DNA from: Candidatus Falkowbacteria bacterium
GTDB lineage: Bacteria; Patescibacteriota; Patescibacteriia; UBA11705; JABHMO01
Reading direction: 5' to 3'
NCBI GenBank assembly: GCA_018703365.1
Contig: JABJLN010000028.1
Span: 1-23,364, forward strand
Length of the DNA stretch: 23,364 nt
Positions 8,225-14,000 of this stretch are shown one piece after another. Position 1 is the stretch's first letter, and every line of letters begins with the position of its first letter. Below the pieces are notes generated by a model. It had not been told where the DNA came from. It worked only from the letters and a program-made list of their open reading frames with translations, and ran no database searches. The translations under genes were made by a program, and so were the position numbers.

Positions 8225-9502
8225 TTAATGCGTCGCGCAACTGATACATGGATCGTATGCCCGAATCAAAGTTTTTATTAACGAATCTCTCTTCTTATCT
8301 GACAACTTTTTAATTTGCGGCAAATATTTCTCAAGATCTTTTTCCAAATTAGCCAAAAACATAGCGGTTGGTGTAATTACATTGCAATGAATAATTTCGC
8401 CCACCTTGTTAAATTCATATTCATGATACAAGATCCCACGAGGTGCCTCCATCACAGCATAACCCTTACCAGCCTTAACTATGAAATCAACTTTTAGGTT
8501 TTTCATAAACTTCGGTTTTGCTCGCAGTTTCTCATATTGGACAAAAAGTTTATTTATCTCCTCAATTGAATTAATAATCTCAGTTGTCTGGGCTACTATA
8601 TTATAGAATGAATTATAACACGGCAAGTTCACTTTTAGCTTATTCCAAGAAGCTTTTGCCTCTTTGTTCAGCTGAGCATAATTATTGTTCACTCGAGCAA
8701 GAGCGCCAACCATGAACGTTTCTTTCATATGATGTGAGCGTTTAACTTTTTCATATGGTAAAACAGTTTCTTGCACGTCACTTAGGAAATCCTCGACTTT
8801 ATCATAACTATCATTATCTGAGAAATAAATGCTCCCATCATAAACTGCATATTCATTTTTATTTTTCAAAGAAACATAATTTGTTGGTCTTTGAAACTTT
8901 GGTAATTTATATTTCAAAACCACATCATGAATTTGCCTAGCTTGTAATAGAACTTGCTTTTGTTTTTGCATTAATTCTTTAAGTTCAACAAAGTCTGGCT
9001 CAACATTAAATCCACCAACTACACTATTAATCGGATGAACGGTTCGACCTCCAACAACTCGCGCTAACTGCACTCCCCAATCACGAACTTGAAGAGCAAT
9101 TTTTGACTCTTTGGTATACTTATTTATCAAAGCAAAATTATTACTAACACCTACGATATCAGGAAACGAGAAAAAGAAAGCATGTACTGCATGACTATGA
9201 ATTATTTGCGCATTTTCTAGGATCTTACGAAGCAATATTATTTCCGGAGTTACCCTGACACTAAAAGCTGCCTCAACGGCCTTAATTGAAGTTAAATTAT
9301 GCACAATCGGGCATACACCACAAATCCGCGAAGTTACAATCGGAGCTTCGTAATATTTTCTATTTAATAATATTCCTTCGATCAAACGAGCTCCCTCTTC
9401 TGTGTCCACGCGAGCTTGAGCAAAATCATTACCAAGCAAAGCCCCAACGAAACTCAGGTGGCCTTCAGTTTTGGCGATGTGATTTATTTTAATAGTTTTC
9501 AT
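8225..9502 (-). CDS. hydA: [NiFe] hydrogenase large (alpha) subunit, group 3b/sulfhydrogenase-like.
   Basis: N-terminal L1 motif RICGVCPIVH (RxCGxCxxxH) and C-terminal L2 motif DPCISCATH (DPCxxCxxH) ending the protein. About 425 aa, as for group 3 enzymes. A 4-bp ATGA overlap joins it to the upstream PLP gene. Confidence 0.9.
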   Translation of the reverse strand: MKTIKINHIAKTEGHLSFVGALLGNDFAQARVDTEEGARLIEGILLNRKYYEAPIVTSRICGVCPIVHNLTSIKAVEAAFSVRVTPEIILLRKILENAQIIHSHAVHAFFFSFPDIVGVSNNFALINKYTKESKIALQVRDWGVQLARVVGGRTVHPINSVVGGFNVEPDFVELKELMQKQKQVLLQARQIHDVVLKYKLPKFQRPTNYVSLKNKNEYAVYDGSIYFSDNDSYDKVEDFLSDVQETVLPYEKVKRSHHMKETFMVGALARVNNNYAQLNKEAKASWNKLKVNLPCYNSFYNIVAQTTEIINSIEEINKLFVQYEKLRAKPKFMKNLKVDFIVKAGKGYAVMEAPRGILYHEYEFNKVGEIIHCNVITPTAMFLANLEKDLEKYLPQIKKLSDKKRDSLIKTLIRAYDPCISCATH

Positions 9503-10521
9503 AAAGGATATTTTATTTTACCTGTATTAACAATTAACATTTTTTTATCTTTCGGTAATTTGTTTTTCAATTGAAGCATCAACGCCAACCCAGCAATACC
9601 AGAGGCCTCACAATCTATTTGTTGGCACGCAGCAACTCTCAAGGCCTCATCAATAAATTGTTCTTTAACGTTATAAACATCCGATTTCGAACCACAATAA
9701 CCAGCATAGCGATAAAGTTTAATCCACTGCTCATCATAATTAACAAAGGGCAAATGAGGGGAAAACAATTTATTAGCCTTAGTCTTCGGATTGTTAGTGG
9801 TCGACCCAAAAAAATTACAAGCTCTCAATTTATTCACTCTACCCCTAAACCTTGGGTCATGATGACTTGTCACAACCTCCCGTTTATTAATATTTAAAAT
9901 ATTTTCAAATAAATGTCCCGACCCAAACGGAACAAAACAATAGTCAGGAGAACTGTTAATAATTTCATAACTTAACCAGTCATAATATCTAGTTGTCGGA
10001 TCAAGTGCTTCACTTGACGTAATATCGAAACCATTTTTATTTTTTGTTAATCGCAAAATTTCATTCCAAGAAAACGCTTTTTCACTTAAATCAGTTTTAA
10101 ATATCTTGCAACCAGTTTTATACAAAAATTTCAGAATTTCATCATCAATGTGATTATCAACTAGTACTCGCAAATTAGGTAATTTATACTTTTTCAATTG
10201 CACCTGAATGGCAATCGCTGCTGAACCTGATGAGATTATTGAAACATCGGGTAATTTACTTATTTGTCCCCCTTTTTTTGACAACAAGAAATCACGATAA
10301 GTCACTACCATTTCCCAAGCCATTCTATCTTTATGCGTCCCCGTTGGATTATGACTTTCATCCTTCAACCAAACATTATTAAATCCAGGTACTTTTATTT
10401 TGTAAGTTGGAGTAGCGGGAAACTTCGGATCATCAACTGGAAATTCGGGCTTTTCTGGATTATTTTCCGATGCAATTACAATTGACTTTAATATTTTTTC
10501 TTCTTGCTTGGTTAATGCCAT
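9499..10521 (-). CDS. Fold-type II PLP-dependent enzyme (cysteine synthase / threonine synthase-like superfamily) embedded in the hydrogenase operon.
   Basis: KDESHNPTGTHKDRMA matches the PLP-lysine motif K-x-E-x-x-N-P-x-G-[ST]-x-K-D-R. ISSGSAAIAIQ corresponds to the T-S-G-N-T-G block. GSGH is a glycine-rich loop. The stop overlaps the hydA start. Confidence 0.6.
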   Translation of the reverse strand: MALTKQEEKILKSIVIASENNPEKPEFPVDDPKFPATPTYKIKVPGFNNVWLKDESHNPTGTHKDRMAWEMVVTYRDFLLSKKGGQISKLPDVSIISSGSAAIAIQVQLKKYKLPNLRVLVDNHIDDEILKFLYKTGCKIFKTDLSEKAFSWNEILRLTKNKNGFDITSSEALDPTTRYYDWLSYEIINSSPDYCFVPFGSGHLFENILNINKREVVTSHHDPRFRGRVNKLRACNFFGSTTNNPKTKANKLFSPHLPFVNYDEQWIKLYRYAGYCGSKSDVYNVKEQFIDEALRVAACQQIDCEASGIAGLALMLQLKNKLPKDKKMLIVNTGKIKYPL

Positions 10522-10534
10522 AAATAATTTCTAA

Positions 10535-12211: not shown

Positions 12212-12231
12212 ATTTTTTATCTATTCACTCA

Positions 12232-13029
12232 TTAAAAATAATTTACACTTCTTAAAAATTCATAATTAAACACAGGACCATCTTTGCAAATATACTTGGA
12301 CCCAATAGCACAATGCTGACACACTCCTACTCCGCAATGCATTCTTTTTTCCAATGAAAAATACATATTAGCTGGCTCAACCTTTTTGGCCAAAAGTTCT
12401 TTCACAACGAACTTGTACATTATCGCTGGCCCACAGACAAACACTAACGAATTCTTCAATAACTTCTTTTTCTTTATTAAGTCCGTAACAAATCCTTTTT
12501 GTTTAGCAAACCCGGGAATAGTTTCATTTTCCAAAATCAATCCAAAATCATGTTTGTTTTTTATTTTTGAATACTCTCTTTTGAATACTAGTGATTCCTG
12601 TGTCGAACAACCAACCAACACTTGAAGCTTAATATCTTTACGATTGCGATTTTCTTCGAACACGCTTCGCAATGGAATAAAACCACAACCACCACCGATC
12701 AGAATTAAATTTTTAGTAACCTCAGGAAATCCGTTACCAAAAGGTCCACGCACAAAAGCTTTATCGCCAACCTTCAGGTTATTTAATTTAGCAGTTAATT
12801 CTCCAACACTACGAATTGTTAAACAAAAATGTTTATCTGACAACTTTGGGCTCGAAGAAATTGAAATAGGGCATTCACCAAAACCTGGTAAGCCAATTTG
12901 CATAAACTGCCCTGCCAAAAATTTTAATTCATTTTGCTTGTCCAAACTAAAATAAAAAGTATTGGTAATTGAATTTTCTTTAACTACTTTAATAACCTTT
13001 GCTGGTTGTAGGGCATATTGATTTTTCAT
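12232..13029 (-). CDS. hydG: Hydrogenase gamma subunit (FAD/NAD(P)-binding PyrK-like oxidoreductase with a C-terminal 2Fe-2S motif).
   Basis: FAD-binding style N-terminus (FLAGQFMQIGLPGFGECPISISS). Central GGGCGFIPL nucleotide-binding loop. C-terminal CGVGVCQHCAIGSKYICKDGP (Cx4CxxC...C) as in the PyrK/HydG family. A 4-bp overlap joins it to hydB. Confidence 0.8.
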   Translation of the reverse strand: MKNQYALQPAKVIKVVKENSITNTFYFSLDKQNELKFLAGQFMQIGLPGFGECPISISSSPKLSDKHFCLTIRSVGELTAKLNNLKVGDKAFVRGPFGNGFPEVTKNLILIGGGCGFIPLRSVFEENRNRKDIKLQVLVGCSTQESLVFKREYSKIKNKHDFGLILENETIPGFAKQKGFVTDLIKKKKLLKNSLVFVCGPAIMYKFVVKELLAKKVEPANMYFSLEKRMHCGVGVCQHCAIGSKYICKDGPVFNYEFLRSVNYF

Positions 13030-14000
13030 ACTTTTTTCAATTCTTGCAAATTCTCAGCAATATTAATTTCAACTGGGCAAGTTTTGTAACAACGCATACA
13101 ACTAACACAACCATAGTAATCGAACTCATCAGGAATGCGTACAAATTTATGATAATACCAAAAATATAATTTCTTTTTTACTGAATCCAATTCTTTATTA
13201 CCACCCGTTATTTCAGAAAACTTTGGATAAAAACAGGTTGTCCATTGTCGTGTTTTCACGACTTGATCAAATTCAACCTTATCCTTCTGGTCAAAGCAAA
13301 AACAGGTTGGACAATGGATTGAGCACTTCCCGCAACTAAGACAAATTTTAGCTAATTTATCCCATAGTGGGTGGTCAGGATTGTTCAATATTGCTAGCTT
13401 TTTTTGTTCAATCAAAGGATTGGGACCATGCTCAGGTATAAATCCAGCAAATTCAATATTTTCGTAGTCTTCAATTTTACTTTTTTCCAGAAGCTGTTGA
13501 CCTTTTTCCGAGCCGGAAAACAAAATCAAATTACCACTCTTCTGTCTTTCAACAAAAACATCAAAAATAAGATGCTCTAACACATCTTCTTCATATTTTT
13601 TATTAAACACTTTGTATTTACGTAAATCATCCTCAATGCCATTAGTTAAACCAATATAATGTAAGGATTGTCGACGCTTTTGAAAATAATAATCTTTAGC
13701 AAAAACCTGTTCAAATAAAGCCAAGGCTCGTAAATCTAAAATATTTAATCCAAGAATAAAAATAGGCTTTATTTTTTCATTAATAACTTTAGCTACGTCC
13801 TTGGAATATGTCGCCATATCTTGTTTAGCTGGCAAAACAATTGACTTGAATGAATTCAATGGTATGTCACCAGACCAGTCCATATCCCCCGGTTTAAAAA
13901 TTTGTTTAACTAAAACCATTTCTCCATCTTTAACTGGAGAATAAACGAAACCCTTTTCTAGCAATTTTGCTACAAATTTATCAAATTCAGACTTTTTCAT
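13026..14000 (-). CDS. hydB: Hydrogenase beta subunit (4Fe-4S ferredoxin-domain electron transfer subunit).
   Basis: CLSCGKCSIHCPTCFCFD and CVSCMRCYKTCPVE are two CxxCxxCxxxCP clusters. It is the first gene of the operon. Confidence 0.75.
   Translation of the reverse strand: MKKSEFDKFVAKLLEKGFVYSPVKDGEMVLVKQIFKPGDMDWSGDIPLNSFKSIVLPAKQDMATYSKDVAKVINEKIKPIFILGLNILDLRALALFEQVFAKDYYFQKRRQSLHYIGLTNGIEDDLRKYKVFNKKYEEDVLEHLIFDVFVERQKSGNLILFSGSEKGQQLLEKSKIEDYENIEFAGFIPEHGPNPLIEQKKLAILNNPDHPLWDKLAKICLSCGKCSIHCPTCFCFDQKDKVEFDQVVKTRQWTTCFYPKFSEITGGNKELDSVKKKLYFWYYHKFVRIPDEFDYYGCVSCMRCYKTCPVEINIAENLQELKKV

Follow-up and report, generated by a model that had tools for sequence, protein, structure and literature searches.

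A group-3b-type [NiFe] hydrogenase operon of a CPR bacterium and the probably different histories of the genes interleaved with its subunit genes

Why should the operon of a [NiFe] hydrogenase carry, between its subunit genes, three further genes of quite different families? The question is raised by a stretch of 23,364 nucleotides, henceforth the window, which is the contig JABJLN010000028.1 of assembly GCA_018703365.1 from a Candidatus Falkowbacteria bacterium. Between positions 8225 and 14000, its minus strand is filled by seven consecutive open reading frames (ORFs), with a largest gap of 33 nucleotides (nt). They encode, in operon order, HydB, HydG, a protein with two transmembrane helices and a PH-like domain (2TM/PH-like protein, or TM2), a four-helix-bundle protein of the intervening sequence (IVS) type, HydD, a pyridoxal phosphate (PLP) enzyme and HydA. 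We consider it probable that the operon is functional and encodes a cytoplasmic, bidirectional hydrogenase of group 3b, clade hyd1, linked to NAD(P), and that the three extra genes came by three different histories. The 2TM/PH-like gene would be a vertically conserved, clade-specific fifth gene of the operon, the IVS-type gene the centre of a self-contained cassette, and the PLP gene a member of a conserved family of Candidate Phyla Radiation (CPR) and DPANN lineages that may lodge repeatedly in the cluster of hydrogenase and lower-glycolysis genes. The matter is of some consequence: CPR bacteria, which are abundant and uncultured, have a minimal metabolism, and group-3b hydrogenases are among the few energy-related enzymes that they have kept. 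Separating the core (hydBGDA with the 2TM/PH-like gene) from the cargo also sharpens the annotation of metagenome-assembled genomes, as a co-oriented neighbour is not automatically a subunit.

The nature of the enzyme comes first. An original prediction, made from the letters of the window and its list of ORFs, had recognized four structural genes, hydB, hydG, hydD and hydA, in the order beta-gamma-delta-alpha, and had placed the enzyme near group 3b. ORFs, Pfam, NCBIfam and Protein Data Bank (PDB) matches all agree with these assignments, the order is as proposed, and of the two motifs then quoted for HydA, RICGVCPIVH is present and DPCISCATH forms the very last residues of the protein. The family and fold labels proposed for the interleaved genes were correct as well. 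Compared with all PDB sequences, HydA scores highest against group 3b, with Hyh of Thermococcus kodakarensis (5yxy, 203 bits) and sulfhydrogenase I (SHI) of Pyrococcus furiosus (9e15, 201 bits) ahead of Mvh-type enzymes (group 3c, 136 bits), the NAD-reducing SH (3d, 104), Frh (3a, 101) and group 1 (68 at most). The best PDB match is again a subunit of P. furiosus SHI for HydD (delta, 9e15_A, E = 2.6e-42, 148 bits), for HydG (gamma, 9nez_C, E = 3e-44, 155 bits) and for HydB, where it is the sole one (beta, 9nez_B, E = 1.4e-18, 70 bits). SHI subunits therefore lead for all four proteins, for HydA side by side with Hyh, and the group-3b-like character of the enzyme is borne out. Among NCBIfam models, sulfhydrogenases come top for alpha (sulfhyd_HydA, E = 1.6e-65, 222 bits, against 125 for VhuA and 116 for FrhA), for beta (ShyB, E = 1.5e-25, with AsrA at E = 3.9e-22) and for delta (ShyD, E = 4e-49; the cysteine sets for three FeS clusters are there). 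For HydG, a hydrogenase gamma-subunit model is first, the ShyC/HydG sulfhydrogenase models are fourth and fifth, and AsrB also matches. The nickel-iron ligands C61, C64, C419 and C422 of HydA, together with H425, are invariant across five lineages.

This ranking of similarities supports a group-3b-type large subunit. The kinship is a remote one: HydA obtains 221.9 bits with the equivalog model of P. furiosus SHI (NF040832), which has a cut-off of 880, and the scores of all subunits lie far under the NCBIfam equivalog cut-offs, so that the enzyme stands far from its archaeal kin and is not a strict orthologue of theirs. With the archetypes of group 3b (P. furiosus SHI, hydBGDA, 9E15/9NEZ; T. 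kodakarensis Hyh, 5YXY), the window shares the four subunits and their order, the L1 and L2 cysteine motifs, AsrA/AsrB-like beta and gamma subunits, and the cysteines for three FeS clusters in the small subunit. It differs from them in a HydA that is at most about 30% identical, in an operon broken by three extra genes, in a HypA cut down to its nickel domain, and in its host, a mesophilic CPR bacterium where theirs are hyperthermophilic archaea.

Group-3b hydrogenases of CPR bacteria have already been published (Jaffe, 2020, PMC7304191; Valentin-Alvarado et al., 2024, PMC10811913). The former paper distinguishes two CPR-specific clades. In hyd1, AsrA/B-like beta and gamma subunits are encoded nearby and the small subunit measures about 250 amino acids (aa); in hyd2, it is truncated to about 164 aa. 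The beta and gamma genes of hyd1 are described by that paper as sometimes 'not immediately upstream' of the small-subunit gene, which matches the interruptions of the window. With a HydD of 255 aa and beta and gamma genes in the operon, the CPR host of the window fits hyd1; we infer this membership from the set of subunits and the length of the small one, and not from the tree of Jaffe. The locus is accordingly of a known kind. What the present analysis adds is the separation of core and cargo, the architecture of the IVS cassette, a hotspot at the hydD/hydA junction and leads on maturation. As far as they could be read here, the two papers hold no 2TM/PH-like gene, hairpin-bracketed IVS cassettes or PLP gene, nor the hydD/hydA hotspot, a leaderless promoter or the missing C-terminal extension of HydA.

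Could the arrangement be an accident of assembly? An index of public assemblies has this very HydA in 52 blocks, and the loci that were read (L001, L002) are syntenic with the window; the same arrangement on independent metagenome contigs excludes an assembly artefact. By identity of HydA, the nearest representatives in GTDB belong to Kuenenbacteria (75%) and Falkowbacteria (63%), and the 157-aa TM2 protein is identical to an NCBI entry of Candidatus Falkowbacteria. The host is a Falkowbacteria/Kuenenbacteria-like genome of the CPR/Patescibacteria. Scans for Rfam families and tRNAs gave none in the window, and no rRNA. The features discussed here are collected in Table 1.

Table 1. Coordinates of the operon and of the elements associated with it in the window.
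Feature	Coordinates	Strand	Details
hydB, beta subunit (AsrA-like, 2x[4Fe-4S])	13026-14000	-	324 aa; Fer4_22, E = 1.9e-24
hydG, gamma subunit (FAD/NAD(P)-binding, [2Fe-2S])	12232-13029	-	265 aa; FAD_binding_6, NAD_binding_1, DHODB_Fe-S_bind
TM2 (2TM/PH-like)	11738-12211	-	157 aa; without Pfam match
IVS-type ORF	11336-11704	-	122 aa; PF05635 23S_rRNA_IVP, E = 1.7e-35
IVS-type cassette, ORF with both inverted arms	11303-11748	-	
IVS inverted arms	11303-11336 and 11713-11748	-	each about five 7-nt repeats (GTAAnnn / nnnTTAC)
hydD, delta (small) subunit	10535-11302	-	255 aa; Oxidored_q6, E = 1e-22
Fold-type-II PLP enzyme	9499-10521	-	340 aa; PALP, E = 4e-22
hydA, [NiFe] large subunit	8225-9502	-	425 aa; NiFeSe_Hases, E = 1e-31
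Extended -10 element	14009..14017	-	TGTTATAAT; 8 nt upstream of hydB ATG
Hairpin upstream of hydB	14040..14078	-	followed by TCTTTTGTTT (T-tract); -16.5 kcal/mol, z = -2.3
Hairpin after hydA	8164..8219	-	-14.1 kcal/mol, z = -1.7; weak
mini-HypA	1127-1381	-	84 aa, MHD start; Ni-binding N-domain only

How are these genes expressed? At hydB/hydG and at PLP/hydA, the stop codon overlaps the next start (ATGA), and the remaining gaps measure 13 to 33 nt. Gaps this short, the two overlaps, and internal promoter- or terminator-like sites that stay at chance level suggest that 8225-14000 makes up a single transcription unit. Its first gene had been predicted to be leaderless behind an extended -10 element, and the comparison of seven lineages speaks for this: TGnTATAAT stands 8 nt before the ATG of hydB in five of them (the window, L003, L007, L023 and, counting from the second ATG, L009), 9 nt from it in L005 and 11 nt in L006, and none of the seven shows a Shine-Dalgarno (SD) sequence before hydB. 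The conserved geometry supports a leaderless hydB mRNA, with transcription predicted to start from the extended -10. A generic scan for promoters and terminators between 8000 and 14300 did not rise above shuffled expectation, which leaves the conservation across lineages as the support for the promoter. Upstream of it, the hairpin that ends in a T-tract probably insulates the operon from upstream transcription. At the other end, hydA and the ORF at 7313-8164 converge on a gap of 60 nt; the hairpin found there was missed by the terminator scan, yet transcription of the operon is likely to stop at it in this lineage.

An ORF of 28 aa with 11 cysteines (14092-14178, minus strand; MKCDKCKCAPCKCKSKCTSCGCKTCKCK) separates dinB from the first of these hairpins and from the hydB promoter behind it. 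L003 has a near-identical peptide at the corresponding position. Such a peptide resembles a metal-binder of the metallothionein type, and a link to the supply of nickel or iron is possible.

The relatives tell which of the interleaved genes belong to the operon. They were fetched by way of HydA (L003-L013), of the 2TM protein (L023), of PLP homologues (L014, L025) and of a HypC::HydE fusion (L027), with scans for HydA of genome and metagenome contigs giving 4 and 7 loci. Their recurrent order is LexA-DinB-[hydB-hydG-X-hydD-hydA]-miniHypA-pgk-(SIMPL)-eno-gpmI. The clade of the window has the 2TM gene as X, whereas a sister clade (L011, L014, L027) has in its stead a methyltransferase-like gene followed by a 47-aa transmembrane peptide and the HypC::HydE fusion. 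By homology to P. furiosus SHI, HydG would exchange electrons with NAD(P)(H) through its FAD and [2Fe-2S] centres, HydB and HydD would pass them through [4Fe-4S] clusters, and HydA would make or split H2 and possibly reduce polysulfide. The module stands directly upstream of pgk-eno-gpmI in this lineage, which would fit a disposal of glycolytic reducing equivalents as H2.

It had been proposed that three genes were inserted into the operon. All three are interleaved indeed, but they are not equivalent: the 2TM gene is a conserved member, and only the IVS-type and PLP genes are lineage-specific. In L023, the operon reads hydB-hydG-TM2-hydD-hydA, with hydD and hydA 8 nt apart; uninterrupted otherwise, it still holds TM2, which makes TM2 a clade-specific operon member. 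The protein begins with two transmembrane helices, followed by a cytoplasmic PH-like domain, a seven-strand beta-sandwich capped by a C-terminal helix. Neither a Pfam nor an NCBIfam model matches it. A profile search of 1.8 billion representatives gave 1569 relatives (17 at E<=1e-30), the distant ones weakly resembling DUF3093 and DUF6141. With these membrane-anchored bPH proteins, TM2 shares the two N-terminal helices, the sandwich and the terminal helix. It differs from them by its place in a hydrogenase operon and by a distinctive Gly/Arg-rich loop (GYGIRxGxD...GY..R.G.G), its most conserved segment, which is poorly predicted in the structural model.

Is TM2 there for a reason? A neutral hitchhiker, fixed early in the clade and of no functional use to the hydrogenase, is conceivable but on balance doubtful. 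It would account for the absence of the gene from L006 and from the sister operons, for its evolution being faster than that of the Hyd subunits, and for the wider family consisting of generic 2TM-bPH proteins of no evident relation to hydrogenases. Against it stands the position of the gene: TM2 is kept between hydG and hydD in six lineages (in five of them the identity of HydA was measured, at 56-75%), hardly separated from its neighbours or overlapping them, while the other junctions turn over freely, and this argues for function. The conserved loop indicates purifying selection, and TM2 has no bracketing repeats, unlike the cassettes described below. Its absence from L006 and the sister clade means that it is not essential to the enzyme. 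We argue that TM2, as a conserved fifth gene, encodes an accessory protein at most; it is a candidate for a membrane tether or some other accessory role.

The IVS-type gene is an altogether different case. Its product is a clear member of PF05635 (121.9 bits for a cut-off of 33.8) and of TIGR02436 (117.8 bits for a cut-off of 24, E = 2.5e-34). ORFs of this family ('S23p') are carried by the intervening sequences of 23S rRNA, for example in Leptospira and Coxiella. The spacers of 33 nt on either side of the gene are mutually complementary. Their core (11303-11332 with 11713-11742) pairs over 30 nt at 83% and can be extended to 33 nt at 76%; the 5' arm overlaps the stop of TM2, and the 3' arm ends at the ATG of hydD. 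When 11285-11765 is folded as RNA, the stem is closed in both the minimum-free-energy and the centroid structure. The duplex of the flanks, at -32.5 kcal/mol, lies beyond the 5th percentile of 199 other genes, which have a median of -12.4, and the flank duplexes of 11 cassettes taken together differ in energy from those of these genes (Mann-Whitney p = 4e-6). The arms are built with a period of 7 nt, with autocorrelations of 0.55 and 0.68 over a background of 0.32 +/- 0.10.

Such brackets are not confined to this gene. Seven of eight PF05635 genes examined have inverted arms, the sequences of which differ; beyond the window, they were found in L003, L011, L012, L014 and L023. Another copy in the window (gene 17397-17795, cassette 17339-17839, minus strand), upstream of lexA, has 7-nt-periodic inverted arms made of AATTTTC-type repeats. 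Arms also flank a PDDEXK_3 ('GxxExxY') gene in L006 and a GIY-YIG gene in L014; the PDDEXK_3 gene of L005 has only a short pair of 14 nt. Similar repeats were sought around the PLP, NUDIX and TM2 genes and rejected, the internal pairs found being at chance level. The PF05635 cassettes sit at TM2/hydD in the window, at hydA/hypA in L003, L014 and L023, at hydD/hydA in L011 and just before hydA in L012, in which no hydD can be seen; those with PDDEXK_3 sit at hydG/TM2 or hydG/hydD. Occupying different junctions in different lineages, the cassettes act like units that are mobile or can at least be transposed.

The likeness to the ORF-bearing intervening sequences of 23S rRNA extends to the family and to complementary arms able to form a long enclosing stem. 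The difference is the site, between TM2 and hydD in an operon of mRNA and not inside a helix of 23S rRNA. In the mRNA, the arms would pair, and the 3' arm, abutting the hydD start, may cause processing or modulate the translation of hydD: an RNase that cuts double strands might be drawn to the stem, or the start codon might be masked by it. We have here a testable picture of IVS-type genes (PF05635, PDDEXK_3 and GIY-YIG in hairpin-bracketed cassettes) spreading into mRNA operons besides rRNA genes. Thin searches of the literature returned nothing relevant on cassettes of IVS proteins or on GxxExxY, and no description of arms with a 7-nt period. The four-helix bundle also invited a reading as the Avd protein of a diversity-generating retroelement, which was rejected: DivGenRetAVD gives 28 bits for a cut-off of 80, and the window has no reverse transcriptase ORF.

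What, then, is the PLP enzyme doing next to hydA? It is a fold-type-II protein of PF00291, with the PALP domain, a Schiff-base lysine and the loop that binds the phosphate of PLP. In its family, the lysine (NPTGTHKDR), the glycine loop and the serine at the ring nitrogen are invariant. The same domain, lysine, Gly-rich loop and serine contacting the pyridine nitrogen are found in threonine synthase, O-phosphoserine sulfhydrylase, CysK/CysM, SbnA and the cysteate synthase CapA, to which the protein of the window is at most 19% identical. It belongs to a family of its own, of 340 aa, with hits seen only in CPR and DPANN. Among 1615 detectable homologues, the best 120 are all 70-75% identical to it, save one entry at 99%, and the source names of these 120 comprise many CPR lineages together with Woesearchaeota, Micrarchaeia and Diapherotrites. 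No named subfamily fits: the threonine synthase model PRK05638 gives 36.5 bits (cut-off 421) and CysM 19.6 (cut-off 394).

Nine gene contexts of the family were read, and three of them (the window, L014 and L025) lie inside the cluster of hydrogenase and lower-glycolysis genes. In L014, the gene occupies the same hydD/hydA junction, in an operon with a HydA of no more than 47% identity; in L025, it stands between eno and gpmI, that is, between enolase and iPGM of the same supercluster. One archaeal copy (L017) has PGK two genes off, in the order HAD-PLP-LOG-PGK, and another (L015) has pyruvate phosphate dikinase (PPDK) about 1.2 kb away. The contexts of L018, L021, L026 and the place labelled P0052 are unrelated. 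In that of L018 (4763-8981, a Magasanikbacteria genome), the PLP gene stands in a nucleotide-housekeeping run of NUDIX, ChaC, PLP, two NTPase_I-T and dCMP deaminase genes. NUDIX is also the cargo at hydD/hydA in L003 and L007, so that a small group of genes would seem to move about in company.

It is tempting to make the enzyme a functional partner of the hydrogenase, either as an O-phosphoserine or O-acetylserine sulfhydrylase that catches H2S derived from polysulfide, or as a serine/cysteine beta-eliminase that feeds pyruvate to glycolysis. The slot shared by two such divergent operons, the place beside enolase in L025, and PGK or PPDK nearby in two DPANN genomes go in this direction. So does the overlap of the PLP stop with the hydA start, which makes co-expression with the hydrogenase probable, and so do the sole matches in PDB at the sequence level, marginal ones, to CysK, cystathionine beta-synthase (CBS) and CysM, with the PLP-binding residues invariant. 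The nearest relatives of the operon, however, hold other things at this junction (NUDIX in L003, HydA 75% identical; an IVS-like gene in L012, 85%), it is empty in the clean operon of L023, most of the homologues read elsewhere stand in unrelated contexts, some of them in DPANN with no hydrogenase nearby, and the equivalog scores remain far under their cut-offs. We therefore regard the partnership as rather unlikely, and a link to three-carbon or sulfur amino-acid chemistry in general is put forward as a tentative idea that we would not expect to hold. We conclude that the PLP enzyme is not a hydrogenase subunit. That it lodges time and again in the hydrogenase/glycolysis cluster is probably not random, and this tie is the first functional lead for a protein about 70% identical across CPR and DPANN.

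The junction that harbours the PLP gene is an insertion hotspot. Of the 11 lineages that show both hydD and hydA, 9 have the interval expanded; the two exceptions, L023 and L027, have a closed junction. Where the window has the PLP gene, L003 has NUDIX; L007, a membrane protein of 420 aa with NUDIX; L006, a related protein of 290 aa; L011, an M10-like peptidase with an IVS gene; L013, a fragment of a phosphoenolpyruvate (PEP)-utiliser with an ORF of 145 aa; and L014, an ORF of 106 aa followed by the PLP gene. L009 has 378 bp there, and L005 has 1.4 kb of non-coding DNA. The hydB/hydG junction is expanded in three of eight lineages, and hydA/hypA is variable too. Operon junctions, and hydD/hydA above all, would thus appear to hold different cargo in nearly every lineage. 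The spacer of L005 (6565-8000), which has neither an ORF nor an Rfam match, holds two units of some 300-400 nt, each with a promoter-like site (TTGACT-17-TATATT) on the minus strand and a strong hairpin with a T-run; they may be unknown small RNA genes.

On the other side of hydA, a block of 6.8 kb (1515-8164, plus strand) holds five genes, two of them for WD40/beta-propeller proteins of 606 and 739 aa. Its GC content is about 0.40, when that of the native genes is about 0.32, and its genes have a strong GGAGG Shine-Dalgarno sequence, which the native ones lack. In L004 and L009, too, hydA is followed by a related block. The whole has the look of an island gained by horizontal transfer.

There remains the maturation of the enzyme, and with it the idea that each of the three extra genes serves this hydrogenase alone, as an accessory or maturation factor in place of missing Hyp proteins and a missing protease. 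The window does lack hypB-F and the protease, and the three genes are co-oriented and tightly spaced. For all that, this is very improbable: the nearest relatives lack the IVS and PLP genes at these positions, PF05635 genes are scattered (the second copy of the window lies next to LexA), the PLP family also occurs in genomes and contexts with no hydrogenase, and the protease is not needed. HydA ends at the histidine of L2, with no C-terminal extension, in the window and in all relatives seen. In other [NiFe] enzymes, this histidine is the site of cleavage by the protease. The archaeal HydA precursors of 428 aa run 4 residues beyond it, the alignment stopping at residue 424. A protein that ends at the cleavage site needs no endopeptidase, and this explains why none was found. 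In the ORF list and Pfam matches of the window, the only hyp gene is that for the 84-aa N-domain of HypA, as the original prediction had it. A look-up of the ORF at the right end of the window (22803-23306), by which the view might have been widened to further hyp genes, gave no record.

This mini-HypA aligns to residues 1-64 of the 139-aa HypA of T. kodakarensis. A full HypA joins an N-terminal nickel site to a zinc domain with two CxxC motifs; here there are no cysteine pairs, and the NCBIfam HypA models give 41-43 bits, under cut-offs of 88-146. The gene had been described as lying 7 kb away from the operon. The distance is right, yet it is due only to the opposite-strand block just described, and most relatives have the gene right after hydA. 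It is present in at least 10 related lineages, directly behind hydA in L005, L006, L007 and L008, with at most one gene in between in L003, L014, L023 and L027.

In the sister operons, the place between hydG and hydD is taken by the HypC::HydE fusion (HypC::HydE/HydG coordinates: L011, 3088-4404 and 5211-6587; L014, 1246-2526; L027, 9001-10263). Its N-terminal HypC matches TIGR00074, and the HydE part gives 257-289 bits for a cut-off of 254.6; L011 also has a bona fide HydG, at 562 bits. The family of the fusion has more than 100 clusters, and all named sources are Patescibacteria/Parcubacteria or unclassified bacteria. These observations hint that radical-SAM maturases of the [FeFe] type serve a [NiFe] enzyme in the sister operons, and in CPR bacteria such maturases, and not HypCDEF, might assemble the Fe(CN)2CO moiety of a [NiFe] site. 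Thin literature searches gave nothing that combines HypC, HydE, HydG and Patescibacteria. One might go further and imagine a pared-down support system: no processing of HydA, a zinc-less HypA, TM2 as the tether of a normally soluble group-3b enzyme, and a co-translated PLP enzyme that uses sulfide or feeds the glycolysis partner. As a whole, this is a speculation that we think improbable. The missing protease, the half HypA and the fusion of the sister clade could interest hydrogenase biochemists, as a lead only.

Finally, that the locus is decaying or mis-assembled, insertions having broken the hydrogenase or the contig being a chimera, is scarcely credible: the operon is interrupted and the block after hydA looks foreign by its GC content and SD, but all seven ORFs are intact, every cofactor-binding cysteine is conserved, the codon usage of the PLP gene matches that of the core genes (cosine 0.96, though TM2 and IVS are lower, at 0.89), the identical arrangement comes from many independent samples, and every insertion respects gene boundaries.

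Some points weigh against the reading that we prefer, of a functional hyd1 operon with extra genes of three different origins. Few loci came out of the HydA scans, so that the junction statistics rest on about 13 lineages, a small sample. The identity of TM2 to the copy of the window falls from 56% in L003 to 51% in L023, 45% in L007, 32% in L005 and 26% in L009, against 53-82% for the Hyd subunits, and the gene is missing from L006 and from L011, L014 and L027. The IVS region as a whole is no better folded than its shuffles (z = -1.6), its closing stem alone standing out. The structural model of the PLP enzyme is moderately confident (pLDDT 73.8). The single transcript, its leaderless start and the cleavage of the IVS stem are all deduced from the sequence.

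Two observations on the neighbourhood may be added. Upstream of the hydrogenase operon (14217-17330, minus strand), an SOS-type stretch comprises lexA (200 aa), a protein of 154 aa with an MCAG start, an ORF of 82 aa and a DinB/IMS polymerase. The lexA/DinB neighbourhood precedes the hydrogenase operon in most relatives, and this linkage of the damage response to hydrogenase and glycolysis is unexplained. Farther upstream, the segment 18677-21592 (minus strand) is GC-rich, at 0.48 for a local value of 0.32-0.35. It might have been taken for an rRNA gene, which the negative Rfam scan rejects; it is instead an ORF of 971 aa with MVP_shoulder and, weakly, Vault_3 domains. A vault-domain gene is unusual for a CPR bacterium, and this one is probably foreign.

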